Source: Bacteroidota bacterium (GTDB taxonomy: Bacteria; Bacteroidota; Bacteroidia; AKYH767-A; 2013-40CM-41-45). From it: 64,000 bases of DNA. Shown here piece after piece: positions 20,346-43,200 of this stretch. The stretch covers positions 77,984 through 141,983 of the forward strand of contig JANOVV010000028.1 in the NCBI GenBank assembly GCA_031417555.1, given 5' to 3'. The notes under the pieces were generated by a model that was not told the origin of the DNA, made no database searches, and saw nothing but the letters and a program-made list of their open reading frames with translations. Numbering within the stretch: the first letter of the stretch is position 1; each line of letters starts with the position of its first letter. The position numbers and the translations under genes are program-made.

Positions 20346-23300
20346 ATGCAAAAAATCACTACTCAACTTTTGTTTTATTGTTGTGAAAAAAGATTAACTC
20401 GAACAATTCCTGTAATCTTACTCCTCATTAATTTTGCAATTAATGTACCGGAATCATTTGGTCAAAGCCAATCGATTAGTACACCTGGTGTATCAATCGG
20501 AGGTAGTTCTACTACCGGCTCAGTATCGGCCGGAATTCCAAATTGTGTTCCACCAATATGTACAATTTCAGGAAGTACTTCAATTTGTCCTGGAACGGCA
20601 ACCACATTATGTGCGCCAGTAGGCCTTGCAGCTTATTCGTGGAGCACCGGTTCTACAGCTCAGTGTATTTCCGTTACAACACCCGGCACTTACATTGTAA
20701 CTATTACAGCTGTAGGTGGGTGTACGAGTACATGTAACATTACTGTAACTACAGCAACAGCACCAATATCAGGTAGCGGTTCTATTTGCAGTGGTGGTTC
20801 TACGCAATTATGTTCTGTGGCAGGTGCAAGTTCATATTCCTGGAGCACAGGAGCTACGACACAATGTATTACGGTAACAACAGCCGGTACTTATTCAGTC
20901 ACTACATGTATTAACGGTTGTTATATCACAAGCAGTAAAACAGTAACAGTTGGTTCTGTTTCTTGCTCAATCACTGGTAATAGTACAATTTGCTCGGGTG
21001 GATCCACTTCTCTATGTGCACCCTCCGGACTCTCTTCATATTCCTGGAGTACAGGAGCAACAACAAAATGTATTACTGTAAGTTCAGCTGGTACATATAC
21101 AGTAACTGTGTCTAACGGTGGATGTACAAGTAGTTGTAGTAAGACAGTAACAGTTCGACCAGCTTTAAATTGTACAATTACCGGAGCATCTTCTTTTTGT
21201 CAGGGGGGCTCTACTCAGCTTTGTTTGCCTACGGGTTATCAATCTTATTCATGGAATACAGGTGCAACTACACGTTGCATTACAGTAACATCCGCAGGAA
21301 CATATTATGGAAACGTTAATGATGGTACATGTAATAAAACTTGCAGCAAGGCTGTAACCGTTACATCTGTCAATTGTTCGATTACGGGAAGCAGTTCTAT
21401 TTGTCCGGGTACAACAACACAATTATGCGGACCGGCTGGACAATCATCTTATTCATGGAGCACAGGTTCAACATCACAATGTATAACAGTTGGTTCAAGT
21501 GGTACATATACATTAACAGTCACCAATGGAGGTTGTACTAGTAGTTGTTCTAAAACAGTTACTGTAGGTGCAATAAGTTGCAGTATTACTGGAAGCAGTA
21601 CAATTTGTGCCGGAGGCTCAAATCAATTATGTGCACCTGATGGAATGGCAACTTATTCGTGGAGTACCGGAGCAACAACACAATGTATTATTGTAAACAA
21701 TTCAGGTAATTATTCTGTTACCATCACCAATGGCAGTGGTTGCAGCAGTTCGTGTAGTAAATCAGTTTCTCTTAATAATACTTTAAGTTGTAATATAACA
21801 GGTACAACAGCAATTTGTCCGGATGGTACGACACAACTTTGTGCACCAGCAGGAATGGCAACTTATTCATGGAGTACAGGAGCAACTACACAATGTATAT
21901 TTGTAAGCTCTGCATCAACATATACTGTAACAGTTACTGATGGAAGTGGATGCAACAGCACTTGTTCAAAATCGGTAACAATAATTAATACAGATGATGG
22001 CAATGCATGTACTATAGATGCTTGTAATCAGCAAACGGGCGGCGTAACACATACTGCAGTAAATACAGATGATGGTAATGCCTGCACAGTTGATGCCTGC
22101 AATATTCAAACCGGAGTAATAACTCATACTTATGCAAGCATTGATGATGGTAATCCGTGTACCATTGATGCTTGTAATTCATTAACGGGTGGTGTTACGC
22201 ATACAGCTGTTAATACAGATGATGGCAATGCTTGTACAATCGATGCTTGTAATATTCAGACGGGAGTAATAACTCATACAGCAGTAAATACAGATGATGG
22301 CAATCCATGTACCGTAGATGCTTGTAATGTACAAACAGGAGGAATTACTCATACAGCGGTAAATACTGATGATGGCAATCAATGTACTATTGATGCATGT
22401 AATTCGTTAACGGGAGGTATTACACATACAGCAGTAAATGTTGATGATGCAAATGCATGTACAATTGATGTATGTAATTCTATAACAGGCATTACTCATA
22501 CAGCTGTTTCAACTAACGATAATAATGCTTGTACATACGATGGTTGTGATCCTGTAACAGGTGTATTTCACAATACAATCAACTCAGATGATAACAATCC
22601 GTGTACAATAGACAATTGTAATTCATTAACAGGAATTACTCATACAGCAGTCAACCCTGACGATGGCAATGTTTGTACGACGGATGGTTGTAATACGGCG
22701 ACAGGAGTATTTCATATTTCGGTTTCTGTAAATGATAACAACCTGTGTACAATTGACGGTTGTGATCCAATTACCGGCATATTCCACATATTAAAAAATA
22801 CGGATGATGGAAATGCTTGTACAATAGATGCCTGTAATAGTGTTTCAGGAGCGATTACGCATGTGCCTGTAAATATAAACGACAACAATGCTTGTACCAC
22901 TGATGCTTGCGACCCGATAACCGGAATCATTACATATGTATTGGTTTCTACTGAAGACGGCAATGCTTGTACAATAGATGGTTGTAATTCGATAACGGGT
23001 GTAACTCATGTTCCGGTTTCTACCAATGATAATAATGCCTGTACGTTTGACGGTTGTGATCCTGTGCTTGGAGTATTTCATAATACAATAAGTTCTGACG
23101 ATAACAATCCATGTACTTTAGATAATTGTAATCCGGTAACAGGTATTTTCCATACGGCAGTTGATCCAAACGATGGTAATGTTTGTACAACAGATGGTTG
23201 TAATACTGCAACAGGAGTATACCATATTTCGGTTTCAGTTAATGATAATAATCTATGTACAATAGATGGTTGTGATCCTGTTAACGGAATATTCCATATC

Positions 23301-26300
23301 TTAAAAAATACTGATGATGGAAATGCATGTACAATTGATGCTTGTAATTCTCTTACAGGTGCAATTACACATGTTCCGGTAGTAATAAATGATAACAATG
23401 CTTGTACGACAGATGCTTGTGATCCTGCTACCGGAGTAGTCACACATATTCAGCTTTTAACAGATGATGGCAATGCCTGTACAATTGATGATTGTAATAT
23501 TTTTACAGGGGTTACACATGTACCGGTATCCACTAACGACAACAATGCTTGCACGTTTGATGGTTGTGATCCGGTTTTAGGTGTATTCCACAATACGATT
23601 AGTTCAGATGATAATAATCCTTGTACAATAGATAATTGCAATGTTTCAACAGGTGTATTCCACACTCCAGTTAATCCGGATGATGCTAATGTTTGTACTA
23701 CGGATGGTTGTAATTCAATTACAGGAGTATTCCATATTTCACTTTTGACCAATGATAATAACTACTGTACGATTGATGGCTGTGATCCGATAACAGGAAT
23801 TTTTCATACTCCGGTAAATGCGGATGACGGCAACTCTTGTACGGAAGATAATTGTATTCCGGCAAATGGTTCGATTACTCATGTTCCATTCAATGTAAAC
23901 GATAACAATCCGTGTACAATTGATGCATGTAATCCTGCTTTTGGAAACATTACACATGTTCCGGTAATTACTGATGATGGCAATCCTTGTACAATTGATG
24001 CTTGTAATTCTTTCTCAGGAGTAGTTACGCATTTAGCGGTTATTATAAACGATAACAATGCTTGTACAATGGACGCTTGTGATCCATTTAACGGGAATAT
24101 TACACACATGGCAGTATTTATAGATGACGCTAATGCTTGTACCAACGATTTTTGTAATTCTATTACAGGAGGTATAACTCATCCGGCAATTATAATTAAC
24201 GATAACAACGCTTGTACTGTTGATGCCTGTGATCCTGCAACCGGAAATATTACACATGCCCAAATAATTACCGACGACGGAAATAAATGTACCATTGATG
24301 CATGTAATTCCTCTACCGGTGCAATTACGCATGTTGTTATTAATCCAAATGATAATAATCCTTGTACAGTAGATGCTTGTGATCCTATTACCGGAAATAT
24401 TACAAATATTCCCGGAATTACGGATGATGGTAATGCTTGTACAATAGATGCATGTAATCCGGCAACAGGTGCAGTTACACATGTTGTAAAAGATGTTGAC
24501 GACAACAATGCATGTACGGTTGATGCTTGTAATCCTTCTACCGGAAATATTACTCATACACTTGTAATTACCGACGACAGCAATGCGTGTACAGTTGATG
24601 CTTGTAATTCTGCAACCGGCGCAATCAGCCATGTTGTTGTTGATCCAAACGATAATAACGCTTGTACGGTTGATGCATGTAATCCTTCAACGGGAAATAT
24701 TACACATATACAAACAATTACCGATGATGGTAATGCCTGTACAATTGATGCTTGTAATACTGAAACCGGTGCTGTTACACATGTTGTTAAAAATGTAAAT
24801 GATAATAATGCTTGCACGGTCGATGCTTGTAACCCTTCCGACGGAAATATAACTCATACACTTATAATTACAGATGATGGCAATAAATGCACAGTGGATG
24901 CTTGTAATTCTGCAACGGGTGCAGTTACCCATGTAGTTAAAGATGTCGACGATAATAATGCATGTACTTTAGATGCTTGTGATCCTTCCGACGGAAACAT
25001 TACACATACACTTGGAATTACTGATGATGGCAATGCTTGTACTGTTGATGCCTGTAACTCTGCCACCGGAGCAGTAACCCATGTAGTAATTGATGTTGAT
25101 GATAGTAACGCATGTACAGAGGATGCCTGTGATCCTTCCAACGGAAATATTACACACACACTTGGAATTACTGATGATGGTAATGCTTGTACTGTTGATG
25201 CTTGTAATACGGCCACAGGAGCCGTAACGCACATGGTAATAGGTGTAGATGATAAGAATGAATGTACGGTAGATGCTTGTGATCCTGCAAATGGAAATAT
25301 TTCGCACAATGCAGTCATTACCGATGATGGTAATGCTTGTACAATCGATGCTTGTAATTCAGCCACAGGAGCAATAACACATGTGGTTATAAATGCAAGT
25401 GATGACAATGCTTGTACAATAGATGCTTGTGATCCTGCTTCAGGTAATATCACTCATATTACATTTAATACAAATGATGGTAATGCGTGTACAATCGATG
25501 GTTGTAACCCATTAACAGGAGAATTTCATATTCCGGTATCAACGGAAGATAACAACCTTTGTACTTTTGATGGTTGTGATCCTGTCCTTGGTGTTTTCCA
25601 TAATGCAGTTAACTCAAATGATAATAACTTATGTACAGCAGATGGTTGTAATTCGCTTACAGGAATTTTCCATACTACAATAGATCCTAATGATAACAAT
25701 GTTTGTACAACTGATGGTTGTAACACTTTAACCGGTGTTTTCCATATTTCAGCCTTAACAAACGACAATAACGCATGTACAATCGATGGTTGTGATCCGA
25801 TAACTGGTATTTTCCATACTCTTAAAAATGCTGATGATGGTAATGCTTGTACAATTGATGCTTGTAATACAGCAACAGGAGCAATAACACACGTTGTTGT
25901 TGTTACAAACGATAACAATGCTTGTACAGTTGATGCTTGCGATCCGGCTACAGGATTTATTACTCATAATGCAATTAGTATTGATGATGGTAATGCTTGT
26001 ACAGCTGATGCATGTAATACAACTACAGGTGCTATTACACATGTTGTTGCAAATACTAACGATAACAATGCATGTACAATAGATGCTTGTGATCCTGCTA
26101 CCGGATTCATAACTCATGCATTTATTAATACCGATGATGGCAATGCTTGTACAACTGATGCTTGTAATTCAGTTACCGGTTCAATTACACACGTTCCCGT
26201 TAATATCAGTGATAACAATGTATGTACTACCGATGCTTGTGATCCATTAACTGGATTTATCTTACATACAACTTTAAATCCCGATGACGGCAATGTTTGT

Positions 26301-29300
26301 ACTATTGATGCTTGTAATTCAATTACCGGAATAACACATGTTCAGGTTTCTTCAAACGATAATAACGCATGTACCTTTGATGGATGTGATCCGATACTGG
26401 GCATATTCCACAATACCATCAGCTCGGATGATAACAACCCTTGTACAATCGATAATTGTAATTCAATAACAGGAATATCTCATACTACTGTTAATCCTGA
26501 TGATGGCAATGTTTGTACAATAGATGCTTGTAACACAATAACAGGAGTAACTCATACTTCAGTCGCAACTAACGATAACAATGCATGTACTATCGACGGT
26601 TGTGATCCTGTTACCGGAATATTCCATATAGCTAAAAATACCGATGATGGTAATGCTTGTACCGTTGATGCATGTAATACTTTAACAGGTGCTATTACAC
26701 ACATTGTTGTAAATACAAATGACAACAATGCTTGTACCGTTGATGCTTGTGACCCTTCTACAGGATTTATTACTCACACAGCTATCAGTATTAATGATGG
26801 TAACGCTTGTACTGTTGATGCTTGTAATTCATCTACTGGTGATATTACTCATGTTCTTGTAAATGTAAACGACGGCAATGCATGTACTCTGGATGCTTGT
26901 GATCCTGTTACTGGCTTCATAACTCATAATGCTATCAGTATAAATGACGGCAATGCTTGTACTGTTGATGCTTGTAATTCAGCAAACGGCGACATTACGC
27001 ATGTGCTTGTAAATGTAAATGATGGTAATGCTTGTACAGCCGATATTTGTGATCCGGCCACAGGGTTTATTACTCATCCGTTTATAAATACTGATGATGG
27101 TAATGCATGTACAGTTGATGCCTGTAATTCAACTACTGGAGCTATCACACATGTTGTTGTAAATACAAACGACAACAACGCATGTACAATAGATGCTTGT
27201 GATCCTGCTACAGGATTCATAACTCATACAGTTATTAATACAGATGATGGTAATGCTTGTACTATTGATGCTTGTAATTCAGCTACAGGTTCAATTACAC
27301 ATGTCCTTGTTAATATTAACGATAACAATGCATGTACAACTGATGCCTGTGATCCAGCGACAGGATTTATCACTCATACATTTTTAAATCCTGATGATGG
27401 TAATGTTTGTACCATTGATGCTTGTAATTCAATCACCGGAATAACGCATGTTCAGGTTTCTTCAAACGATAACAATGTTTGTACATTTGATGGTTGTGAC
27501 CCAATAACAGGTGTGTTCCACAATACAATCAGCTCTGATGATAACAACCCTTGTACAATCGATAATTGTAATTCAATAACAGGAATATCACATACTTCAG
27601 TTAACCCTGACGATGGCAATGTTTGTACAATAGATGCTTGTAACTCAATAACAGGAGTAACTCATACTTCAGTTGCAACTAATGATAACAATGCATGTAC
27701 GATCGACGGTTGTGATCCTGTTACCGGTGTTTTCCATATCGCTAAAAACATAGACGATGGTAATGCATGTACAGCCGATGCTTGTAATTCAGCCACTGGT
27801 GCGATCACTCATGTTTTTGTTAATACAAACGACAATAACGCATGTACTGTCGATGCTTGTGATCCTGTTACAGGAATAATTACCCATGTTGTCATAAGTA
27901 TTGATGATAATAATGCATGTACAGCGGATGCTTGTAATTCAATCACAGGATTGGTTACTCATACCAATGTCATTACTGATGATGGCAACCCTTGTACGAA
28001 TGATGTTTGTAATCCTTTTACAGGCATAATTACTCATACAGCTACTATTACAGATGATGGTAATCCTTGTACAATTGATGCTTGTAACTCAGTTACAGGA
28101 GGAGTTACCCATACAGCTGTAAATACGGATGATGGTAATGCTTGTACTACAGATGCTTGTAATCCTGCAACTGGCGCAATTACTCATACAGCAGTTAATA
28201 TCGACGACAGCAACCCTTGTACAATTGATGCATGTAATTCTGTAACAGGAGGCATAACTCATACAGCTGTAAATACGGATGATGGAAATGCTTGTACAAC
28301 GGATGCTTGTAATCCTTCTACAGGTGCTATCACTCACATAGCAGTAGTTACTGATGATGGTAATGCTTGTACGGTTGATGCTTGTAATTCAAGTACTGGT
28401 GTAATCACTCATACAGCTTTGAATACGGATGATGGAAATGCTTGTACAACGGATGCTTGTAATCCTTTAACAGGTGCTATCACTCATACAGCAGTTGTTA
28501 TAGATGATAATAATGCTTGTACAGTTGATGCCTGTAATTCAGTAACAGGTGTAATAACTCATATTGCAAATCAACCAACCACTTGTACAATAACTGGTAA
28601 TAGTGATATATGTTTTTCAGGAAATACAACTTTATCTGTCTCGAATGTGGGATCATATTTATGGAGTACAGGTCAAACTACTTCATCAATAACTGTTACT
28701 TCTGCAGGTTTATACTCTGTAATTGTTACTAGCAACAACGGTTGCAGCAGTACTTGTTCACTTACAGTAACTTCTCATAATTGTGGAATTACTCTTAGAA
28801 AAACGCCGGATAAGTGTGAATTTCCTGATGGCGTTCCAACTTTAGTAAATTTCGAATATGTTGTAAAGAATAATTTGACAAGTGGTTTCAGTGCGTCAGG
28901 TATCTTAACAGATGATAATGGTACTCCGTTAAATAAATTGGATGATGTATTAGTTTGTAATTGGGGACCAATTATTCCCGGAGACAGTACAATTTGTTAT
29001 AAAGCATTTACAATATCAAGTACCTATACAAATATTGCAATAGCTTCCGGAACTTCCGGAGGAGCATCGGTTTCAGCAATTGCTACTGCTACTGTAAAGG
29101 GCGTGAATTGCAATTGTAATCTTAACTACCCCGACAACTCAAATTTACCTCGCTCTGCTGTAATTTTTAACGAAAGTGAAATTTTGAGAACCTCAGAACC
29201 AGGTCCAACATCTTGTGCTACTTTAGGATCAAAGATTAAACTTTGGTATAATGATGAACATGCTATGTTACTTGGTATTAAATCGGTTAGCGTAAAAACT

Positions 29301-30806
29301 TCTGGAGGTACAATTACAACAAACTACAATGTTTCTCCATACTCCGGTTCCCCTGGTTGTATTAGTAATCCTTTAATGGGAGATACAATAACATCAGGAG
29401 ATCAGGCGGCAAACGATTTAGCAGACGGTGGCGGTCGTCCGATAAGACCATTAATTTTCTTAACCGATCTTACTGTTAATGGTGCAAATAGCAGAATTGG
29501 CGACTGGCAACAAGGCGGAATTGGTATTTCTCCGACCGGTATATGTGGTTCCTGGAAAAGTGCAACTAAGCTAATTGATAAAACTAAAAACCCGCCTCTT
29601 GTAACTATTACAACTGATCCGAATCCTGCTAAAAATAATTGGAATCTTGGAAGTGGATCTGATACACCTGCTGAAGGATTTGCAAGCTTGAAAAATGAAG
29701 GTTATGGAACCGAAGTTTCATGGGATATCAATAGCCTGGGATTAATTCCGGGTCATGATTATCGTGTAGTGTTTATGGTTCACGATGGTGATCAAAATAA
29801 AACCGGGGGAGATGTAGGTGAGACTTGTACTACAATTCATATTCCTGATGGATTGTGTAATACATTTAACACACCTCCGCCACCACCTCCGCCATCTGAA
29901 AAAGTTTGTTACAAAGGAACTGCAAATACCTATGTAAGAGCAAGCCAATCATGGACAATTAATACAACTACGAATCAAGCAACCATTCGAACTACATTTT
30001 CAAAGAATTTTGTAGATAACACGTATGGTACTAATGCTATAAGCTGGCCTTCAGGACATACTTTTAGTAATCTGGTTGGTTCTGATCATGTTCAAATGGC
30101 ATTGTATGATGGTAACAACGTTAAGAAAATGGAATTCAAAGTAGATTATATTACTTCAAATAGTTCTGTTGCTTCAGGTTACAAATGTCTTGGAGTGGTA
30201 GGCGGTGAGGGTAGCATGTTATTAGGAAATGCATCTGATGTTGTTAGTGCAACAACTTCAATTGACCAAAACTTAAATACTTTTGGTTATGTATTAACTA
30301 CTAATTCTCCTGCGACAAACAGCAGCTATACTCCAAATGCAACGTATCCTAACTGGATTTATGATGTATGGTACGAAGTAACTGTTAATCTATCTGCATT
30401 TGGACCGGCCGGTTTCGGAAGACCACTTATAACGGCCATTCATGCAAGCCCAAGTAAGACAGGTAACAATACAGAGGTTATGGTAGATACAATTTGTGTA
30501 AATCCTCGACTTGCTTCCACTTCAGAAATGATTAACGAAAATAATTTAATGGTAAATGCTTACCCGAATCCATTTAGCACAAGTGCTATTATAGAATTCC
30601 ATACAAATGATAAAGCATCTCAGATTGTTCTGGAAGTTTATACACTCACAGGTGAAATAGTTACAACTCTGTTCAATGGTATTGCTGAGCCAGGTATTAA
30701 ATACAAATCGGAATTTAAAGGTGAGAATCTTCCAAATGGAATTTACATCTACCGATTGGAAAACGAAGATGGCATTGTCAATGGTAAATTGATATTAATG
30801 AAATAA
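20346..30806 (+). CDS. giant (3486 aa) T9SS type-A sorted cell-surface protein: ten or more N-terminal ~64-aa Cys-rich Ig-like repeats, about 90 tandem 24-25-aa two-Cys repeats, a unique C-terminal region, and a T9SS C-terminal domain
   Basis: N-terminal repeats C.ITG.S.IC.GG.T.LCAP.G...YSWSTGATTQCITV.S.GTYTVTV.NG.GC.S.CSK.VTV. Core repeats DDGNACTxDACNxxTGxxTHxxVNT. PPPPPPP linker. C-terminus ...YPNPFSTSAIIEF...NGIYIYRLENEDGIVNGKLILMK (Por_Secre_tail-like). Confidence 0.85.
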   Translation: MQKITTQLLFYCCEKRLTRTIPVILLLINFAINVPESFGQSQSISTPGVSIGGSSTTGSVSAGIPNCVPPICTISGSTSICPGTATTLCAPVGLAAYSWSTGSTAQCISVTTPGTYIVTITAVGGCTSTCNITVTTATAPISGSGSICSGGSTQLCSVAGASSYSWSTGATTQCITVTTAGTYSVTTCINGCYITSSKTVTVGSVSCSITGNSTICSGGSTSLCAPSGLSSYSWSTGATTKCITVSSAGTYTVTVSNGGCTSSCSKTVTVRPALNCTITGASSFCQGGSTQLCLPTGYQSYSWNTGATTRCITVTSAGTYYGNVNDGTCNKTCSKAVTVTSVNCSITGSSSICPGTTTQLCGPAGQSSYSWSTGSTSQCITVGSSGTYTLTVTNGGCTSSCSKTVTVGAISCSITGSSTICAGGSNQLCAPDGMATYSWSTGATTQCIIVNNSGNYSVTITNGSGCSSSCSKSVSLNNTLSCNITGTTAICPDGTTQLCAPAGMATYSWSTGATTQCIFVSSASTYTVTVTDGSGCNSTCSKSVTIINTDDGNACTIDACNQQTGGVTHTAVNTDDGNACTVDACNIQTGVITHTYASIDDGNPCTIDACNSLTGGVTHTAVNTDDGNACTIDACNIQTGVITHTAVNTDDGNPCTVDACNVQTGGITHTAVNTDDGNQCTIDACNSLTGGITHTAVNVDDANACTIDVCNSITGITHTAVSTNDNNACTYDGCDPVTGVFHNTINSDDNNPCTIDNCNSLTGITHTAVNPDDGNVCTTDGCNTATGVFHISVSVNDNNLCTIDGCDPITGIFHILKNTDDGNACTIDACNSVSGAITHVPVNINDNNACTTDACDPITGIITYVLVSTEDGNACTIDGCNSITGVTHVPVSTNDNNACTFDGCDPVLGVFHNTISSDDNNPCTLDNCNPVTGIFHTAVDPNDGNVCTTDGCNTATGVYHISVSVNDNNLCTIDGCDPVNGIFHILKNTDDGNACTIDACNSLTGAITHVPVVINDNNACTTDACDPATGVVTHIQLLTDDGNACTIDDCNIFTGVTHVPVSTNDNNACTFDGCDPVLGVFHNTISSDDNNPCTIDNCNVSTGVFHTPVNPDDANVCTTDGCNSITGVFHISLLTNDNNYCTIDGCDPITGIFHTPVNADDGNSCTEDNCIPANGSITHVPFNVNDNNPCTIDACNPAFGNITHVPVITDDGNPCTIDACNSFSGVVTHLAVIINDNNACTMDACDPFNGNITHMAVFIDDANACTNDFCNSITGGITHPAIIINDNNACTVDACDPATGNITHAQIITDDGNKCTIDACNSSTGAITHVVINPNDNNPCTVDACDPITGNITNIPGITDDGNACTIDACNPATGAVTHVVKDVDDNNACTVDACNPSTGNITHTLVITDDSNACTVDACNSATGAISHVVVDPNDNNACTVDACNPSTGNITHIQTITDDGNACTIDACNTETGAVTHVVKNVNDNNACTVDACNPSDGNITHTLIITDDGNKCTVDACNSATGAVTHVVKDVDDNNACTLDACDPSDGNITHTLGITDDGNACTVDACNSATGAVTHVVIDVDDSNACTEDACDPSNGNITHTLGITDDGNACTVDACNTATGAVTHMVIGVDDKNECTVDACDPANGNISHNAVITDDGNACTIDACNSATGAITHVVINASDDNACTIDACDPASGNITHITFNTNDGNACTIDGCNPLTGEFHIPVSTEDNNLCTFDGCDPVLGVFHNAVNSNDNNLCTADGCNSLTGIFHTTIDPNDNNVCTTDGCNTLTGVFHISALTNDNNACTIDGCDPITGIFHTLKNADDGNACTIDACNTATGAITHVVVVTNDNNACTVDACDPATGFITHNAISIDDGNACTADACNTTTGAITHVVANTNDNNACTIDACDPATGFITHAFINTDDGNACTTDACNSVTGSITHVPVNISDNNVCTTDACDPLTGFILHTTLNPDDGNVCTIDACNSITGITHVQVSSNDNNACTFDGCDPILGIFHNTISSDDNNPCTIDNCNSITGISHTTVNPDDGNVCTIDACNTITGVTHTSVATNDNNACTIDGCDPVTGIFHIAKNTDDGNACTVDACNTLTGAITHIVVNTNDNNACTVDACDPSTGFITHTAISINDGNACTVDACNSSTGDITHVLVNVNDGNACTLDACDPVTGFITHNAISINDGNACTVDACNSANGDITHVLVNVNDGNACTADICDPATGFITHPFINTDDGNACTVDACNSTTGAITHVVVNTNDNNACTIDACDPATGFITHTVINTDDGNACTIDACNSATGSITHVLVNINDNNACTTDACDPATGFITHTFLNPDDGNVCTIDACNSITGITHVQVSSNDNNVCTFDGCDPITGVFHNTISSDDNNPCTIDNCNSITGISHTSVNPDDGNVCTIDACNSITGVTHTSVATNDNNACTIDGCDPVTGVFHIAKNIDDGNACTADACNSATGAITHVFVNTNDNNACTVDACDPVTGIITHVVISIDDNNACTADACNSITGLVTHTNVITDDGNPCTNDVCNPFTGIITHTATITDDGNPCTIDACNSVTGGVTHTAVNTDDGNACTTDACNPATGAITHTAVNIDDSNPCTIDACNSVTGGITHTAVNTDDGNACTTDACNPSTGAITHIAVVTDDGNACTVDACNSSTGVITHTALNTDDGNACTTDACNPLTGAITHTAVVIDDNNACTVDACNSVTGVITHIANQPTTCTITGNSDICFSGNTTLSVSNVGSYLWSTGQTTSSITVTSAGLYSVIVTSNNGCSSTCSLTVTSHNCGITLRKTPDKCEFPDGVPTLVNFEYVVKNNLTSGFSASGILTDDNGTPLNKLDDVLVCNWGPIIPGDSTICYKAFTISSTYTNIAIASGTSGGASVSAIATATVKGVNCNCNLNYPDNSNLPRSAVIFNESEILRTSEPGPTSCATLGSKIKLWYNDEHAMLLGIKSVSVKTSGGTITTNYNVSPYSGSPGCISNPLMGDTITSGDQAANDLADGGGRPIRPLIFLTDLTVNGANSRIGDWQQGGIGISPTGICGSWKSATKLIDKTKNPPLVTITTDPNPAKNNWNLGSGSDTPAEGFASLKNEGYGTEVSWDINSLGLIPGHDYRVVFMVHDGDQNKTGGDVGETCTTIHIPDGLCNTFNTPPPPPPPSEKVCYKGTANTYVRASQSWTINTTTNQATIRTTFSKNFVDNTYGTNAISWPSGHTFSNLVGSDHVQMALYDGNNVKKMEFKVDYITSNSSVASGYKCLGVVGGEGSMLLGNASDVVSATTSIDQNLNTFGYVLTTNSPATNSSYTPNATYPNWIYDVWYEVTVNLSAFGPAGFGRPLITAIHASPSKTGNNTEVMVDTICVNPRLASTSEMINENNLMVNAYPNPFSTSAIIEFHTNDKASQIVLEVYTLTGEIVTTLFNGIAEPGIKYKSEFKGENLPNGIYIYRLENEDGIVNGKLILMK
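21990..28570 (+). repeat. ~6.6 kb of in-frame tandem 72-75-nt repeats (about 90 copies) encoding the DDGNxCTxDxC(N/D)xxTGxxTH unit
   Basis: Direct reading. Repeated ...gatgatggtaatgcttgtac...gatgcttgtaat... units. Neighbouring copies are often more than 85% identical. Confidence 0.9.
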
Positions 30807-30857: not shown

Positions 30858-32137
30858 TGGTATCTAGAATATGGCTGCGAGATTAAAACCGAAAAGTTCT
30901 CTAACAAGATGACAATTTCAAATGCTTATAGAGGGATGAGAATGTAATGCTAAAAGATGCTATGCATTTTTCAGAATGAAACTTTTAGCTTTACTTTTTT
31001 CCCTTCTTTTTTTAAACAACGGTCATCTCTTTAGAGAGCTTTTCGGTCAATTGTTAATGTCTTTTTAGCTTAATAATTTTTCAACTATTTTTGTTCAAAT
31101 AGTCTTTTTGTATTGTGTAGAATATTACTGCGAGATTAAAACCGAAAAGTTCTCTGGCGAGATGACAATTTCGTATGCTTATAGGGGGATGAGAATGTAA
31201 TGCTAAAAGATGCTATGCATTTTTCAGAATGAAACTTTTAGCTTTACCTTTATCCCCTTCTTTTTTTAAACAACGGTCATCTCTTTAGAGAACTTTTCGG
31301 TTAATTCGAAATGTCTCTTTAGCTTAATAATTTTGCAACTATTTTTGTTCACAATACCTTTTTTGTATTGTGTAGAATATTACTGCGAAATTAAAAACCG
31401 AAAGGTTTTCTGGCGAGATGACAATTTTGTAGACTTATTGGGGGATGAGAATGTAATGCTAAAAGATGCTATGCATTATTCAGAATGAAACTTTTAGCTT
31501 TACTTTTTTCCCTTCTTTTTTTAAACAACGGTCATCTCTTTAGAGAGCTTTTCGGTCAATTGGTAATGTCTTTTTAGCTTAATAATTTTTCAACTGTTTT
31601 TGTTCAAATAGTCTTTTTGTATTGTGTAGAATATTACTGCGAGATTAAAAACTTAAAGGTTCTCTGGCGAGCAATGTCATTAAGTTAAGCTACGGGTCAT
31701 GTTTTTTTTGCCACAAAAACACAAAAACACTAAAAAAAACAAAAATTAAATACCAACAATTTTGTGTCTTAGTGTTTTTGTGGCATTAGATCCTTAACTT
31801 AATGACATTGCTCTGGCGAGATGACAATTTCGTATGCTTATAGGGGGATGTGAGTGTAATGCTAAAAGATGCTAAGCATGTTTCAGAATGAAACTTTTAG
31901 CTTTACCTATTGCCCTCTTCTTTTTCTAAACATGGGTCATCTCTTTAGAGAGCTTTTCGGTTAATTAGAAATGTCTCTTAAGCTTAATAATTTTTCAACT
32001 ATTTTTGTCCACATTGCCTTTTTTGTATTGTATAGAATATTACTGCGAGATTAAAACCGAAAAGTTCTCTGGCGAGATGACAATTTTGTAGACTTATTGG
32101 GGGATGAGAATGTAATGCTAAAAGATGCTATGCATTA
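30858..32137. repeat. intergenic tandem array of five ~254-bp non-coding structured repeat units (period 253-257 bp, ~90% identity); the last unit is truncated and unit 4 is interrupted by a MITE
   Basis: Unit starts (tgcgagattaaaacc...) at 30876, 31129, 31384, 31638 and 32044. Each unit has a long-range inverted repeat ccgaaaagttctct..gagatgac /~140 nt/ gtcatctc..agagagcttttcgg and an inner hairpin gctaaaag...cttttagc. No ORF of 60 aa or more on either strand. Confidence 0.85.
31672..31810. mobile_element. 139-bp miniature inverted-repeat element (MITE) inserted into repeat unit 4
   Basis: Perfect 18-19-bp terminal inverted repeats (caatgtcattaagttaag ... cttaacttaatgacattg). Internal 13-bp hairpin (gccacaaaaacac/gtgtttttgtggc). 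Flanked by a 10-bp direct duplication ctctggcgag (31662-31671 and 31811-31820) that is present only once in uninterrupted units. Confidence 0.8.
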
Positions 32138-33524: not shown

Positions 33525-34268
33525 AAACCAATACATAGCAAAAACAACCCTTTTTTAAAAAAATCCAGGATTCAGTTTTCCCTAAATTTTCATTATCGTT
33601 TGAATTAATTTTAATTTTCAGTCATTCAAAAAGAATTTTTCAAAAACTGTTTGAGTAGATCGTTTTTCGACAATTCATATAAAAGTAAATGTTAGAAAAT
33701 TATATTATTTGAAAGTATTGTGAAAGGATATGGCTACAAAAACTTTTCTTTTTACTTATTAATTGGAATTTGAAACTGTAATAAATTTAAAAAAATGCAA
33801 ATCACTTTTTTGCCTTTTTAAATCTCTGAAGATGTATTAAAGTGTAAGAAATGTAAAGCTTAGTGATATTTTCTGTGAGAATGGAAATATTTTATCGAAT
33901 AAAAACTGCTTTTAGTTTTCACGACAGCCTTGTTTAGTGTTAAATGGCTTAAATAGACTTCCAATTCTATTTTTCTACATGGTTCTATATTAGAAATTAC
34001 GTTTGTAATAAATGGCTTTTAATCGAGTTTTTAGGTTGCATCATTTGTCAGATACTGGCGTACATATCGATGAATTAGTGTTTTTTGAATGGACATACAT
34101 CCAAAATAAGGGACCATCTAAATAGCATTAATCGAAAGATAATAATAGAAAGTACTCTTCGCCGAAAACGAGAGAGTTATAAAGATTAAGGACATTATGC
34201 CCGAATCATTACATACATCAGTCAGACATTTATGTCAGGACATTAAAAGAAAGGCCTTCGTCGTCAAG

Positions 34269-37200
34269 ATGAAAAAGTTTTTCCTTTATTTTTCTGCCAT
34301 ACTTATGTTACTTTCTTTTGATGCAAAAGCAGCCAATGAAACATTTACTTCAGGTGCTTTTATTATCAACATGGGAGTAACACCTCAAACCGTTGCAAAT
34401 GGTTTGAAGCCTTATGGATTAATTTACGACCTGATTAAAAACAATGATGTACCTATTAAGTGGGTCATCGGACAATCAAAAGTTAAAGATGGAGTCGATT
34501 TTACATACAATGGTAATAGTTACCGCGGTGGTACATTTATTATTAACTCTGAATATAGAAGTGCTGCCGTAAATGCAAAGATCGCAGCATGGCAGGCAAA
34601 GGGCGTTGTTGGAGTTACAACTATAAGCCCAATGACATTAAATGTTACAGTTACATTACAGGCTGTTCCAAATTGGGCCATGGATGCTCAGAACGGAAAA
34701 ATAGCTATTGATTTTTTAATTGCAGCGGAAATTCCGGCATCTGCTTATTACTTTCGAACTCCTGCAACTCTTAATGCTTGTGATAATCTTTATGTAATGC
34801 CTCATGCAGATCCGAAGTGGTCAACTCACAGTAACCTTTATTTCTGGAATAAAAATAACAGAGGTGCTATCTGGGGCGGATGCCATGCAGTAAGTGTTAT
34901 GGAAGGTCCGAGTTGTGTCAACCCGGCGAATCCAACTCAGAATCTGAAATTTCTTACGACCGGTGGAATGGTTCCATTTGGTTCCCATGCAAATGGTACA
35001 CCGCCCTACAGCTATTCGAATTTAAGTGATCCGGTTTTTCAGTTTATGGGTTCTGAAGATGCGGCACACCAGGGCGGTTCTGAGCAAATTTACCTTCCAT
35101 TAAAAGCAGGAAGTACATGGAATCCAAGTGTGAAAATTGGTTGTTATGATCCGACACAATTTGATGTGCCTGCGAAATCTAATGGACCTGCAGTTCTAAC
35201 CGCATATGGATATGCATTTAATGATACTACACGTGGTGTGGTAATGTATGAAAGCGGACACAACATTGGTGGGACAGCACCGGAAAATGTGGCAGCACAA
35301 CGAATATTCTTTAACTGGTCATTTATCGGAGCTTCTAATAAAGAACCACGGGTAACATATTCGAATATTCCAACAAAGATGAATAGTAATGTACTGTATC
35401 CCAATTTTACGGCATCGGCAACTTCGCCGGTTGGATTAAGTGTATTCACCTATAAGTGGAGTTCTACCATTGGTGGTGTTTTTACTGCACCAACAAGTGC
35501 AGTTACAAATTATACAGCACCTGCAGTCGGTACGCCAACTATTGCAAAAATCATTTGTAAGGTTACCGATAATTGTGGGCGATATGCATTAACAGAGTTT
35601 AGTGTATTATTCATGCCGCCGCCTGCAGCTCCTGTTGCAGTTAATGATACAATTAGATTTCCAAATCTTTGCAGTGCATCCACACAAACTATTAATGTTC
35701 TTACGAATGATAATGACATTAATCTGGATATGACCACAACAATTTCTTTTTTGGGCGGTGGTAATCATGGAACTTTTACTAACAATGGAGGAGGAAGTGT
35801 TACATATACTCCGGGATGGCTCTTCCAGGGATCTGATACAATGAGGTACCAGGTATGTGATAGTACAGCACTTTGTCACCAGGCGACTATTGTTGTAACT
35901 ACAGGTTATACAGGGCCGTGTGCGATGACAACGTATCAAAGAACGGATACAGCACGGGCTGATACTGTACAATTTCAGCAAGGTATTGCAGGTCCAAATA
36001 GTTCACTTGGATATCCTGATGCAATCAACGGTAGTAATTCAAATACTGCAAGATGGGGAAGTGACAATGATTCATTAATATTAAGACTCGATAATCAGAT
36101 CAGTACCGGTGATACGGTTCAGTTCCGAATGGCCGCTGATAATAACAACTGTATTGATTTTACTCTAATGGGTTCACTTACCTCTGGTGGTTTTGTACCC
36201 GGTGTAAATTCATTAAATGGCACGATAGCTTCCAGTACCCAAAAAATATACAATTGGTATAATTTCATTGTTACCGGAAATACACGCTATGTAAAAATAC
36301 TTGTCAGGAATACAGCCTGTGACAATAAAATTGACCTTGATGCCATTCGTGCAAATTACCGTTACTGCACAAGTAATGTTCCTGTTGCAAATAAAGACAA
36401 TGCAACAACAGCAGCAAATGTTGCTATTACAACAAATGTAAAAACCAATGATACAGACCCTGCCGGTGGTGCACTTTCAGTAACAATTGTTGATGGTCCA
36501 AATAATGGAACTGCCGGTGTTAATGGAGCAGGAAATATTGTTTATACTCCGGACTCTGCTTTTTTCGGAGCGGATACCTTAATTTATAAGGTATGTAATT
36601 CAAGTTGCCTTTGTGATACTGCCTATGTAATTTATGATGTACAAACCCATCCACCTTGTGGAGCAGGAGTTCCTTCCTATTATAGAAATGGGAATGCAAC
36701 AAGTGTTCCTTCAAGTTTAGGCGTGACCAATCCAAACGGAGCAATTGGAATTCCTGACCAGGTTGACGGAGGTAATGGACAATCTGCAAAGATTAATAAT
36801 GTTGTCAATGATTATATCGTAATGGATCTCACAGATACTGTTTACTCCGGCGATACTGTTGTTGTTCGTATTGCTCCTGATAACAACAGTGCAAATACAA
36901 TAAGAGTACAGGCAAATCTAACTAATGCCTGGGGTTCACCTTCGACAAGTACAGATTTTAATTTACCTGCAGCTAATGGAAAAATTTATTCAAATTATAA
37001 TTTAATACTGACCGGCAATGCAAGATATATAAGAGTTATACAAATAACCACGACTAATAACGTAGATGTAGATGCGGTGAGTTACGATTACTGGTACTGT
37101 GGTATTATGCCAAATAATCCGCCCGTAGCCATAGATGATTCTGTAACTACAAATGTCAATAGAGCGGTGTTTAATAATGTAAAAGCAAATGATTCGGATC

Positions 37201-40200
37201 CCGACGGGAATTCAATAACTCAAAGTATTATAAGTCCTGCTGCATCAAACGGTACAGCGGTAGTTTCCGGAACAGGTATTGTATATACTCCAAATTTTGG
37301 ATTCATCGGTAAAGACACAGTAACTTATAAAATTTGTGACGGTGGTACACCTACATTATGTGATACAGCAATTTTAATTATTACGATCAATGCCGGTCCA
37401 CCTGTGGCAATAGTTAATAACAGCACCGTTAATTCAAATTCGTTTATAAATGTAAACGTACAGGCAAACGATACCTTAGCGGTAACGAGCTATTCTTATA
37501 CTACATCGCTAATGCCGTTAATACTTCCGCCATCAAATGGAACGGCAATATTAGTCGGTAACAACATTCAATATACTCCAAATGCAAATTTCACAGGTGT
37601 TGATTCGCTTGTTTACCAATTATGTGACAATGGAAGTCCGGTCGCCTGCGATACTGCTATAATGTACATTACAGTTACAAACCAACCACCGGTTGCAAAC
37701 AGGGATACAGTAACAACGAGTGCTTGTAACGCTATAATAGTTAGTGCAGTGAACAACGATACAGATCCTGAAAGTGGCACATTGACAATCACGGCTGTTT
37801 CAGTTCCTATTCATGGTACTGCAGTAATATCAAATAACAAAGTAGTATACACACCAACTTCATCACCTGTTTATACCGGTCTCGATTCACTTACTTATAC
37901 AATTTGCGATAATGGAAATCCGTCTCAATGTGTGGCTACAGGTAAAATTGTAATCACAATAAATTCTGTTAATCCGCCAAGTAATCCGCCGAATGCAGTA
38001 GACGATATTGATAGTACGTATATAAACCAGGATATATACCTCACTGTTTTAGCCAACGATTCCGATCCTGATCTTGATTCTATCCAGGTAGATTCAACTG
38101 CAACCGGACTTGTTTTACCATTACATGGAACAATTCACTATCAGCCAGGCAACCAGATTCGTTATGTGCCAAATACAGGCATAGCATTGCCTGATAGTTT
38201 TGAATATAAGGTTTGCGATATGCACAACAATGGAGCAGGGTGTATTAATATTATCGACGCATGTTCTGTAGCCATGGTCTATGTTAACACTTTAAATCGT
38301 CGACCTGCATCAAATGATAATTATGCTTATACAATTAATACTGTCGCTATCAGCAACCAGGTTGGACAAAACGATTATGAACCAGATGGCCAGCCAATGA
38401 CATATACAGCTCTCAATGGACCTTCATTCGGAGGAATAGTTTTTAATTCCGATGGAACATATACTTATACGCCGGATGGATTTTCTACGGGATTAATTAC
38501 GATTGATTATACCGTGTGTGATGATGCTGCAATAACTTTATGTGATACATCCACATTATATATAACAGTGGACATAACAAATGTACCGCCGAACTTAGAG
38601 CAGGATACAGTGTATTGTGCCGGTATTACTCCGACCAATGGAGATGTATCAACCAATGACATGGATCCGAACGGTAATCTGGATCCGAACGGATTTACAT
38701 TGCTGAGTGGTCCGAATAATGGTAGTATGACATTTAATACTGACGGAACTTTTACCTTCACTGCTGACACTGGATTTTTCGGAATTGATTATGTCTTTTA
38801 TGAAGCATGTGATTTAGGTACTCCTTCTATGTGTTCTTCTTCAATGCTTGTTATTTATGTAATAAAAACAGCTCCGATAACTGTTAATGAAAATGTGACT
38901 GTTTTTGAAGATAGCGTATTAACCGTTCCTGCTGTCACCGGTATTTTATCGAATGGAGATTTTGATCCTAATGGATTGAGTCTGTTTGTTGATATTTCAC
39001 TTACTTTAAATCCAGTAAACGGAAATGCAGTAGTTTGGGATGACGGAAGGTTTACCTATACACCGTTCCCGGGTTTTAACGGTTCTGATTTCTTTATCGT
39101 TGATGTATGCGATGATAGTTCATCACTTGCTTCTATTTGTTCTGTTGATACAATTTTTGTTACCGTTACCCCTTTTAACGATCCTCCGATTCTTGATAAT
39201 GAAAATATTTCAGTCAGTGAAGATACACCGTTCAACGGTGACTTAACCGACGCAGGTGATTCCGATCCTGATACGACAGCACTTACTGCCAATACGGTTC
39301 CTGTTGTTGATGTATCAAATGGTACACTTCTCGTTAATGCAAACGGAACATACACGTATACACCAGATCCCGATTACAATGGAAGCGATTTGGCTGTGAT
39401 AAATATTTGCGATGCAGGTACACCAATGCCGGCTAAGTGTAAAAATGATACTATATTCATTACGGTAACTCCATTTAATGATCCGCCGGTTATTGATAAT
39501 GAAACGATATCCACCAATGAAGACACATCGGTCAACGGTGATCTTACTGATGCAGGTGACTCTGATCCTGATGGAACTGCTCTTACTGCGAATACAGTTC
39601 CCGTAGTTGCACCAACGAATGGTTCTATTATCCTGAATGCAAACGGTACTTATACATATACGCCAAATCTAAATTTTAATGGTACAGATATAGTTGTAGT
39701 TAGCATTTGTGATGCAGGTACACCGATGCCGGCCAAATGTGTAAACGATACCATCTTCATCACCGTCGATCCAATAAATGATACACCTGTAATCGATAAT
39801 GAAACGATCTATGTTGATGAGAATACAGTATTCAATGGTGATCTTACCAATGCAGGTGATTCCGATCCGGATACAACTGCTCTTATTGCAAATACAGTCC
39901 CGGTAATTGATGTAACAAATGGTGTCCTGGTTGTAAATGCAAATGGTTCATATACATATACACCAAATCTAAATTATAATGGCCCTGATACTGCCGTAAT
40001 AAACATCTGTGATGCAGGTACACCAATGCCGGCGATTTGTGTGAATGATACAATATTCATAACAGTAGCTCCATTTAATGATCCGCCAGTAATTGATAAC
40101 GAAAATATTTCAACGAACGAAGATACACCTGTTAACGGTGATTTGACCGATGCCGGAGATTTTGATCCTGATACTACTGCTCTAACAGCTAATACTGTTC

Positions 40201-43200
40201 CTGTTCTTGCACCAACCAATGGTTCTATCATTGTAAATTCAGACGGAACATATACCTATACACCAAATCTGAATTTCAACGGTTCTGATATAGTAATTGT
40301 AAATATTTGTGATGGCGGTACTCCTGCACCGGATAGTTGTAAGAACGATACAATCTTCATTACCGTAAATCCTGTAAACGATGCACCGGTATTAGATAAT
40401 GAAACGATTTCTACCAATGAAGATACACCGGTTAATGGTGATTTGACCGATGCAGGTGATGCAGATATCGACACGACTGCCCTTACAGCGAATGTTATTC
40501 CTGTTCTTGCACCTGTAAACGGTATCCTGGTCATTAATGCAAACGGAACCTACACGTATACACCGAACTCAGACTTCAACGGACTCGATACTGCAATAGT
40601 AAGCATCTGTGATGCAGGTACACCTTTGCCGGCTGCTTGTACTAATGATACCATATTCATTACCGTAAATCCTGTAAATGATGCACCGGTATTAGATAAT
40701 GAAACGGTTTCTACCAATGAAGATACACCGGTTAATGGTGATTTGACGGATGCCGGAGATATTGATCCCGATTCAACATCTCTTACTGCCAATACAGTTC
40801 CTGTCGTTGCACCAACCAATGGTTCCATCATCGTGAATGCGAACGGAACTTACACCTATACACCGAATTTAAATTTCAATGGTGCAGACATCGTTGTAAT
40901 AAGTATCTGTGACGCAGGCACACCTTTACCGGCTGCTTGTACAAACGATACCATCTTCATTACAGTAGATCCCGTGAATGATGCACCTGTACCGGACAAT
41001 GAAACGATTTCTACCAATGAAGATATTCCTGTCAGTGGCGACCTTACTGATGCAGGCGATATCGATCCGGATACAACGGCGCTTACTGCCAATACAGTTC
41101 CTGTCGTTGCACCTACCAACGGTTCTATCATCGTAAATGCAAACGGAACATATACTTATACACCGAATCTTGATTTCAACGGTACGGATATCGTTGTAGT
41201 AAGTATCTGTGATGCAGGTACACCTCTGCCTGCTGCTTGTACTAACGATACCATATTCATTACCGTAAATCCTGTGAACGATGCACCGGTATTAGATAAT
41301 GAAACGATTTCTACCAATGAAGATACACCGTTTAATGGTGATTTGACTGATGCTGGTGACATCGATCCCGATTCAACAGCACTTACTGCCAATACAGTTC
41401 CTGTCGTTGCACCAACCAATGGTTCAATCATCGTGAATGCGAACGGAACTTACACCTATACACCGAATTTAAATTTCAATGGTGCAGACATCGTTGTAAT
41501 AAGTATCTGTGACGCAGGTACCCCTTTACCGGCGGCATGTACAAATGATACCATTAACATAACAGTTACTCCTGTAAATGATACTTCTGTAATTGTGAAC
41601 GATACACTAGCAATGGTTCAAAACACTACATTTAATGGAAGTGTAATTAATGCTGATGATTTCGACCCTGATACTACTGCCTTAACAGCCAATACCGTCG
41701 CTGTTTTAAATCCGAATCACGGTGCTATTACAATTAATATCAATGGAACATATTCATATACTCCTGTATTAAATTATTTTGGACCAGATACTGCAATAAT
41801 CTCTGTATGTGATTCAGGAAATCCTTTGCCGTCAATATGTGTAAATGATACACTATTTATGCAAATCTATCCATTTAATACTCCTCCTGTAATTGTGAAC
41901 GATACAATTACCGTTATTGAAGACATTGCATATAGCGGAACAATATTAACAGCCGGAGATTACGATCCTGACAGTTTGGCTTTAATGGTTAATACAACTC
42001 CTGTTGTAGCGGCTACAAACGGTACGATTGTAATGAATGTGAATGGTACTTATACCTATACTCCAAATACAAATTTTAATGGAAGCGATATTGCAGTGTA
42101 TAATGTTTGCGATGCAGGTGCTCCTTTCCCTGAATGTGTGAATGATACTTTATTCATTACAGTTACTGCTGTAAATGATACTACTGTAATTGCTAATGAT
42201 TTTATTAGTGTTAATGAAGATGATTCCGTAAGCTCTACTATATTAACTGCAGCTGATTTTGATCCTGATACTACTGTGATTACTGTAAATATCGTTCCTC
42301 TTTCCGGTCCTTCAAACGGTTTGATTGTAATGAACGGAAACGGTAGTTATACTTATACACCTAATGCCGGATTTAATGGCCAGGAAATTATTGTCTTTAA
42401 TGTCTGTGATGCCGGTAATCCGTTACCTTCTATCTGTGTAAATGATACATTATTCATCACAGTTAATCCGGTTAATGATCCTCCTGTAATTTCGAACGAT
42501 ACAATCTCCACCGATGAAGATAACATCATTAGCGGAACAATTCTCACGGCAGGCGATTTCGACCCTGACTCAACAGCACTCACTGTAAGTACAATTCCAC
42601 TTTCAGGACCGGATAATGGAACCATCGTAATATTTGGAAATGGAACGTTTACTTACACTCCGGATCCTGAGTTCAATGGTATCGATACAATCGTCATTCA
42701 GGTTTGTGATGCTGGAAATCCATTGCCTTCCCTTTGTGTAAATGACACATTGATTGTTACTGTAAATGCAATTAACGATGCACCGGTAGCAGTAAATGAT
42801 AATGCAGCTGTTTGTTCGGGATCTACTATTCAAATCAATGCTCTTGTTAATGACAGCGATGTAGATTTGGATTCAATATTTATTTCTTCAATAGTTCAGC
42901 CTGCAAACGGTACTGCAACTACAGATGGTTTAACAATATCCTACAATCCAAATCCGGGTTATCACGGAGCAGATTCTCTGGTATATACTGTTTGCGATAA
43001 TTCACTTCCTCAAGGATGTTCTTCTGCAACCATTTATATTTCTGTCAATGGACCCGTTAGTTCCGGCATAATTGCCAATGAAGTATTATGCTTTGGAGAC
43101 AGTACAGGTTCTGTTACAACGTCAGCCTTCTTATTAGCGACATTTACATATCTATGGAATACCGGTGATGTGACTCCAAGCATCTTTAATGTTCCTGCAG

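Follow-up and report, generated by a model that had tools for sequence, protein, structure and literature searches.

The insert at positions 31672-31810 of the DNA studied here, a stretch of 64,000 nucleotides referred to as the window, is very probably an IS4-family MITE with ends of the IS1675/ISSsu2 type that has transposed into one unit of a tandem array. A preliminary description of the window had placed a 139-bp MITE at exactly these coordinates. We find the same boundaries, and the MITE reading is borne out by the size of the insert, by its lack of a gene, by its terminal inverted repeats (TIRs), by a target-site duplication with an empty paralogous site, and by ends that are those of autonomous insertion sequences.

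The insert sits in unit 4 of an array with a 254-bp unit. The features of the array and of the insert are listed in Table 1. When an intact unit was aligned with unit 4 by BLAST, unit positions 1-43 reached window position 31671 and unit positions 34-253 resumed at 31811. Both alignments include unit positions 34-43, which are the duplicated 10 bp. This 10-mer, or a close variant of it, is present once in every intact unit. Once the insert and one copy of the repeat are taken out, unit 4 is identical to unit 2 at 234 of 257 positions, a value within the range of the intact units. Excision of the insert together with one duplication copy therefore leaves a normal array unit, the empty site being provided by the paralogous units and not by the orthologue of another strain. 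The 10-bp target-site duplication claimed previously is in this way confirmed by the 100% direct repeat, by the single copy in the intact units and by the restoration of the unit on removal of the insert.

Table 1. Positions of the array units, of the parts of the inserted element and of the IS1675 ends used for comparison. Positions refer to the window except in the last line.
Feature	Position	Strand	Basis or remark
Tandem array, 254-bp unit, about 5.4 copies, about 91% alike	30866-32136		repeat search and BLAST
Array unit 1	30866-31117		BLAST of intact unit against window
Array unit 2	31119-31372		BLAST of intact unit against window
Uninterrupted target example, dyad TCTC-TGGC-GAGA with CTCTGGCGAG at its centre	31151-31162		intact unit 2
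Array unit 3	31374-31626		BLAST of intact unit against window
Array unit 4, carrying the insert	31628-31671 and 31811-32031 (whole unit 31628-32033)		BLAST of intact unit against window
Left copy of the target-site duplication, CTCTGGCGAG, 10 bp	31662-31671		repeat search and BLAST; single copy in intact units
Left TIR, CAATGTCATTAAGTTAAG	31672-31689	+	identical to the ends of IS1675, ISSsu2 and 12 full-length IS4-family elements
Interior, 103 bp, AT-rich, non-coding	31690-31792		similar to no fetched locus
Right TIR, CTTAACTTAATGACATTG on the + strand	31793-31810	-	repeat search and pattern scan
Right copy of the target-site duplication, CTCTGGCGAG, 10 bp	31811-31820		repeat search and BLAST
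Array partial last unit	32034-32136		BLAST of intact unit against window
IS1675 ends in L. lactis pAH1-2 (L222)	301 and about 1904 of L222		

Several properties of the array and of its surroundings were recorded. Each unit contains a long predicted hairpin of about 175 nt, with RNA z-scores of -8.0 on one strand and -8.5 on the other. The unit had no match in Rfam, in plasmids, in phages or in the fetched loci. The array is located between the convergent 3' ends of msrA and of a gene for a 3486-aa type IX secretion substrate. Type IX secretion C-terminal domains were recognized in two giant ORFs, 20346-30806 (3486 aa) and 34197-44687 (3496 aa), namely Por_Secre_tail, and CHU_C with SprB, cadherin-like and Big_9 repeats. 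Most of the 3486-aa ORF is made up of 81 stretches that match the 'Dictyostelium repeat' model, and the 3496-aa ORF is followed by a PorP/SprF gene and an OmpA-family gene. The G+C content of the window is 34%, and its source belongs to the Bacteroidota. Exact-protein look-ups gave two Logan contigs, of 1.2 and 2.3 kb, for msrA and msrB and none for PorP/SprF.

At the left junction, ggttCTCTGGCGAG is directly followed by CAATGTCATTAAGTTAAG, and at the right junction CTTAACTTAATGACATTG is directly followed by CTCTGGCGAGatgac. Read more widely, the window runs from aaaggttCTCTGGCGAG into CAATGTCATTAAGTTAAG on the left and from CTTAACTTAATGACATTG into CTCTGGCGAGatgacaattt on the right. The repeat search returned the direct repeat CTCTGGCGAG (10 nt, 100% identity) and inverted arms of 21 nt, also at 100%, of which 18 nt belong to the element. 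The three extra nucleotides appear in the arms because the duplicated 10-mer begins with CTC and ends with GAG. Within the TIRs all bases are complementary (18/18). Since position 19 is C at one end and G at the other, the TIR is 18 bp long; of the perfect TIR of 18-19 bp described at first, the 18-bp length stands and the 19-bp length does not. When up to three mismatches were allowed, the 18-mer occurred within the 64-kb window at the two TIR sites only, versus 0.21 sites expected. In mononucleotide shuffles of the window, the number of perfect 14-mer inverted pairs within 400 bp was 0 to 3. The structure made of inverted repeats and duplication is no chance feature.

The absence of coding capacity was also confirmed, the longest ORFs overlapping the insert being of 23 and 20 aa. 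On the other hand, the internal palindrome of 13 bp described previously proved to be a split inverted repeat. Its arms are perfect over 14 nt (31709-31722 and 31772-31785) and extend to 26 nt at 88% (31709-31734 and 31760-31785). In DNA folding, the whole 139-bp element is predicted to form one long hairpin (-31.6 kcal/mol, z -7.7). Sub-threshold Rfam matches to plant microRNA precursors were rejected as reflecting the hairpin. A scan of the region for promoters and terminators gave nothing above the level of shuffled sequences, and a check by eye for the Bacteroidota -7 box (TAnnTTTG) inside the element gave no exact match.

The preliminary description had proposed that the TIR could point to an IS family. 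This turned out to be correct, as the exact 18-mer forms the ends of full-length IS4-family elements, of IS1675 and of ISSsu2. A scan for the exact 18-mer, with one genome per species, yielded at least 120 genome stretches. In metagenomes, a second scan for paired perfect ends lying 124-154 bp apart, a spacing chosen to suit MITEs, yielded 43 stretches. The genome matches listed belong to many Flavobacterium species, to other Bacteroidota, to Chloroflexota and to several Gammaproteobacteria, and those listed from Bacillota belong to Clostridia, Lachnospiraceae, Erysipelotrichaceae, Lactobacillus, Streptococcus and Paenibacillus. Also among the matches listed are a single cyanobacterium and a MAG labelled Nanoarchaeota. 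The exact 18-mer was further found in 54 viral-contig stretches (IMG/VR, L168-L221), and the clade also resides in phage or prophage DNA.

Among the listed genome and metagenome loci, 103 paired elements were delimited, 12 of them measuring 1433-1697 bp and 91 measuring 72-346 bp. A single ORF of about 400-460 aa is kept in 10 of the 12 long elements, and the frame is disrupted in the other two (L048 and L074). In Flavobacterium rhamnosiphilum, a 1440-bp contig (L061) corresponds to exactly one element and encodes a 416-aa protein. Two transposases, that of the F. rhamnosiphilum element and that of a Lutibacter MAG, were tested against the NCBIfam model NF033592 ('IS4 family transposase', cut-off 115) and scored 176.6 and 134 bits, respectively. 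The F. rhamnosiphilum transposase also matches Pfam DDE_Tnp_1. In an alignment of the transposases of ten full-length elements with those of E. coli IS4, IS1675 and ISPa1635, no variation is seen at the DDE residues or in the family-defining Y(2)R(3)E(6)K motif, which appear as DG, D(R/K)G and Y..RW.(I/V)E......K. Near the N-terminus, within the first 60 aa, a DF(T/S)RxR(K)L motif (in L061, L092, L015 and others) is almost invariant in proteins that are otherwise about 25% identical. This motif is a candidate for the part of the protein that reads the conserved 18-bp end.

The best annotated plasmid match of the Bacteroidota transposases was ISPa1635, with 33% identity, and that of the Bacillota transposases was IS1675, with 47% identity. 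Transposases of the two phyla are 24-27% identical to one another, yet they share a common 18-bp end, and it should be kept in mind that sampling by exact ends inflates the impression of one end across diverged transposases.

Within the IS4 family, the IS4 subgroup is characterized by ends of the form -AATR--------WTW----, by a length of 1400-1650 bp and by duplications of 10-13 bp (De Palmenaer et al. 2008; PMC2266710 Table 1). In CAATGTCATTAAGTTAAG, positions 2-5 read AATG and positions 14-16 read TTA, in keeping with this end signature. To judge from sequence, the ends, the size and the duplication appear to fit the IS4 subgroup. The IS231 subgroup, found almost exclusively in the Bacillus cereus group, has CAT-------AA--TAA--- ends and a duplication of 10-12 bp (PMC2266710). 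In a comparison of ends, CAATGTCATTAAGTTAAG agrees with IS231 for AA at positions 11-12 and TAA at positions 15-17 and has A instead of T at position 3. The ISPepr1 subgroup, with 5'-CT ends and a 7-8 bp duplication (PMC2266710), was rejected, the ends of the element starting with CA and its duplication being of 10 bp. We also considered the Porphyromonas BrickBuilt MITE as a precedent in Bacteroidota; it was rejected, its ends being IS5-like and unrelated.

The behaviour of the elements with these ends was then examined. At 48 unique sites with a perfect duplication, the length was 9 bp in 13 cases, 10 bp in 27 and 11 bp in 8, all within the 8-13 bp, or about one turn of the helix, that characterizes the IS4 family. 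The 10 bp of the window element is thus the commonest duplication length among elements with identical ends. The duplicated sequences show a marked dyad symmetry, as in CCCTTCGGG, CCCTTTAGGG, AGCAATTGCT and GGCTAAGGCC. All three outer pairs are complementary at 10 of the 48 sites, versus 1.9% of control k-mers taken from the element flanks (P = 2e-8). Elements with these ends favour dyad-symmetric targets. The duplication of the window, CTCTGGCGAG, has complementary outer triplets and is centred in TCTC-TGGC-GAGA. A preference of the same sort, for the dyad-symmetric target GGG(N)5CCC, has reportedly been observed with IS231A.

Short derivatives of 72-346 bp are widespread across several phyla and their interiors are mostly unrelated. 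By interior similarity, 97 short elements fell into 56 clusters. In several of these clusters, copies occupy different sites, sometimes on one contig (L126/L151) or in one genome (L070/L084), and carry different duplications. The occurrence of single lineages at sites with different duplications shows that short elements of this class have moved in trans. Some individual loci may be mentioned. The viral contigs contain full-length copies (1605-1653 bp) as well as MITEs (210-215 bp) with 9-10-bp duplications. In L143 (4099-4658), three copies of a 144-bp MITE are spaced by 208 bp within a tandem duplication. In L207 (1002-1664), again within a tandem duplication, two copies of a 215-bp MITE with the same flanking 10-mer are spaced by 448 bp. 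On the contig binned as Nanoarchaeota (L096, 2772-2945), a 174-bp element with these ends is flanked by a 10-bp duplication in which one base is mismatched.

Relatives of the interior of the window element were searched for in the same material. BLAST of the 103-bp interior against 120 listed genome loci, 43 metagenome loci and 54 viral loci gave chance-level matches only. No second copy of the interior was found within the 64-kb window, and none of the 43 metagenome MITEs of similar size has this interior. In the clustering by interior, the window element is a singleton. A plasmid search with the whole element returned two trivial partial matches. Finally, no IS4-like transposase was detected in the 64-kb window by tblastn with 13 IS4-type transposases (best E = 0.4).

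These results bear on the possibility that the 139 bp never moved as such. A full-length element of about 1.4 kb of the IS4 family would have inserted in the array, made the 10-bp duplication and later lost its interior in place. Such a remnant would have the same ends and duplication as those observed, and the single known copy with this interior among the loci searched is compatible with it. So is the GGAT sequence found just inside the right TIR, since the same bases occur sub-terminally in E. coli IS4 and in several full-length copies. However, the 103-bp interior is unlike that of any of the 12 full-length elements, and it is built on its own 26-nt inverted repeat, as is typical of short lineages, rather than on joined sub-termini of an IS. 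Moreover, in the sampled loci, 43 of which were selected for MITE size, short elements with these ends, which are demonstrably mobile, outnumber full-length ones about eightfold. We therefore consider a deletion in place to be unlikely, and transposition of the 139-bp element itself to be the better account.

A second possibility is that of a local palindromic insertion, or of a replication or repair artefact, produced without any transposition. The element is indeed a strong hairpin inside a hairpin-rich array. However, named IS4-family elements, and hundreds of elements in other genomes, have exactly the same 18-bp ends, and slippage yields no such ends; nor would slippage make a duplication of the 10 bp typical of the family. 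The identity of the ends with those of IS4-family elements in effect refutes this explanation, which we regard as extremely improbable. An assembly artefact or chimera placing repeat-end sequence in the array is hardly credible either: tandem arrays are hard to assemble and two msrA Logan contigs (1.2 and 2.3 kb) stop at the array edge, but a chimeric join would come without a precise 10-bp duplication flanking complete ends, and the unit would not return to normal once the insert is taken out.

The biochemistry of IS4-family DDE transposases is established from Tn5 and Tn10. By analogy, transposition of the MITE into the array would proceed as follows. A transposase supplied by a full-length relative would bind both 18-bp ends and excise the 139-bp element. 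The 3' ends of the element would be joined to a target cleaved with a stagger of 10 bp, and repair of the two gaps would give the CTCTGGCGAG duplication. The target would have been the small dyad TCTC-TGGC-GAGA in the stem of one 254-bp hairpin unit, which would fit the preference of the clade. A matching transposase presumably is, or was, present in the source genome. The insertion would be later than the amplification of the array, because one unit of five carries the insert. The units have diverged by about 9%, but the ends and the duplication show no mismatch, which suggests that the insertion is fairly recent. For the host, the most likely consequence is a neutral disruption of one repeat unit; an effect of the insert on the role of the array is pure conjecture.

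For the source lineage, the insert is a sign that a transposase of the IS4 family, of the IS1675/ISSsu2 type, is active now or was so recently. For the annotation of the source genome, it means that a mobile element splits one of the units of an intergenic array. More generally, the exact 18-bp end is a cheap marker for full-length elements and for a large set of short derivatives, mostly unannotated, that extends across phyla and into viral DNA. The preference for small dyad targets could explain the clustering of such elements in hairpin-rich intergenic DNA.

A broader picture can be drawn from these observations, which we regard as possible but somewhat doubtful as a whole. The CAATGTCATTAAGTTAAG end would define an IS4 clade spread over Bacteroidota, Bacillota, Chloroflexota, Gammaproteobacteria, a cyanobacterium and viral contigs, in which the ends stay constant and the transposases diverge to about 25% identity. 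Unrelated hairpin MITE lineages would repeatedly be born from it and home to dyad hairpin targets. The window copy would then represent a previously unseen lineage lodged in an array stem, where it might alter the role of the array. The class-level pattern was seen in data selected by exact TIRs and may already be familiar to the curators of ISfinder. One end shared by diverged transposases and by many unrelated short lineages is noteworthy at the class level, and unsurprising. The current understanding of transposition is unchanged, the window element being a real but ordinary example. By its sequence, this element is a new lineage of a kind, the IS4-family MITE with IS1675/ISSsu2 ends, that is already known.

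Comparison with named systems places the element more precisely. IS1675, an IS4-family element of Lactococcus lactis plasmids, has its terminal 18 bp identical to those of the window element, within a 26-bp TIR. On L. lactis pAH1-2, both ends read CAATGTCATTAAGTTAAGGAAAACAG in the record, and the 10-bp duplication, GAGTATACTC, is a perfect palindrome. Unlike the window element, which has 139 bp, no gene and an unrelated interior, IS1675 is autonomous, with a length of about 1.6 kb and a gene for a 439-aa transposase. The two hosts belong to different phyla. In ISSsu2 of Streptococcus suis ('IS4-like ISSsu2 family'), compared through its published TIR, CAATGTCATTAAGTTAA (PMC10886379), 17 of 17 bases match the window end. 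ISSsu2 too is an autonomous IS; it gives composite transposons and circular intermediates in S. suis.

Two further members of the family with IS4-type ends, IS4 of E. coli and ISPa1635 of Pseudomonas, were also compared. The IS4 end, TAATGCCGATCAGTTAAGGATC, matches the window end at 13 of 18 bases and its duplication is of 12 bp; ISPa1635 has the end CAATGTCATCAACCTAAG and a 10-bp duplication. Both share the -AATR--------WTW signature and the DDE/YREK residues with the elements having the exact TIR, but their ends are not identical to those of the window element, and their transposases are 20-33% identical to the exact-TIR transposases. The MIC231 cassettes mobilized by IS231 in the Bacillus cereus group resemble the window element in principle, as they have IS4-family ends without a transposase and are moved in trans. 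In contrast to the window element, they carry passenger genes, and the IS231 ends, CAT-------AA--TAA, and host range are different (PMC2266710). Finally, full-length elements such as L061, L004, L043, L088 and L092 come from Bacteroidota, the phylum of the window. Their 18-bp TIR is identical to that of the window element and their duplications are of 9-10 bp. They are 1433-1467 bp long, with transposases of 397-452 aa and interiors unlike that of the window MITE. Elements of this kind are the most plausible source of transposase for the MITE of the window.
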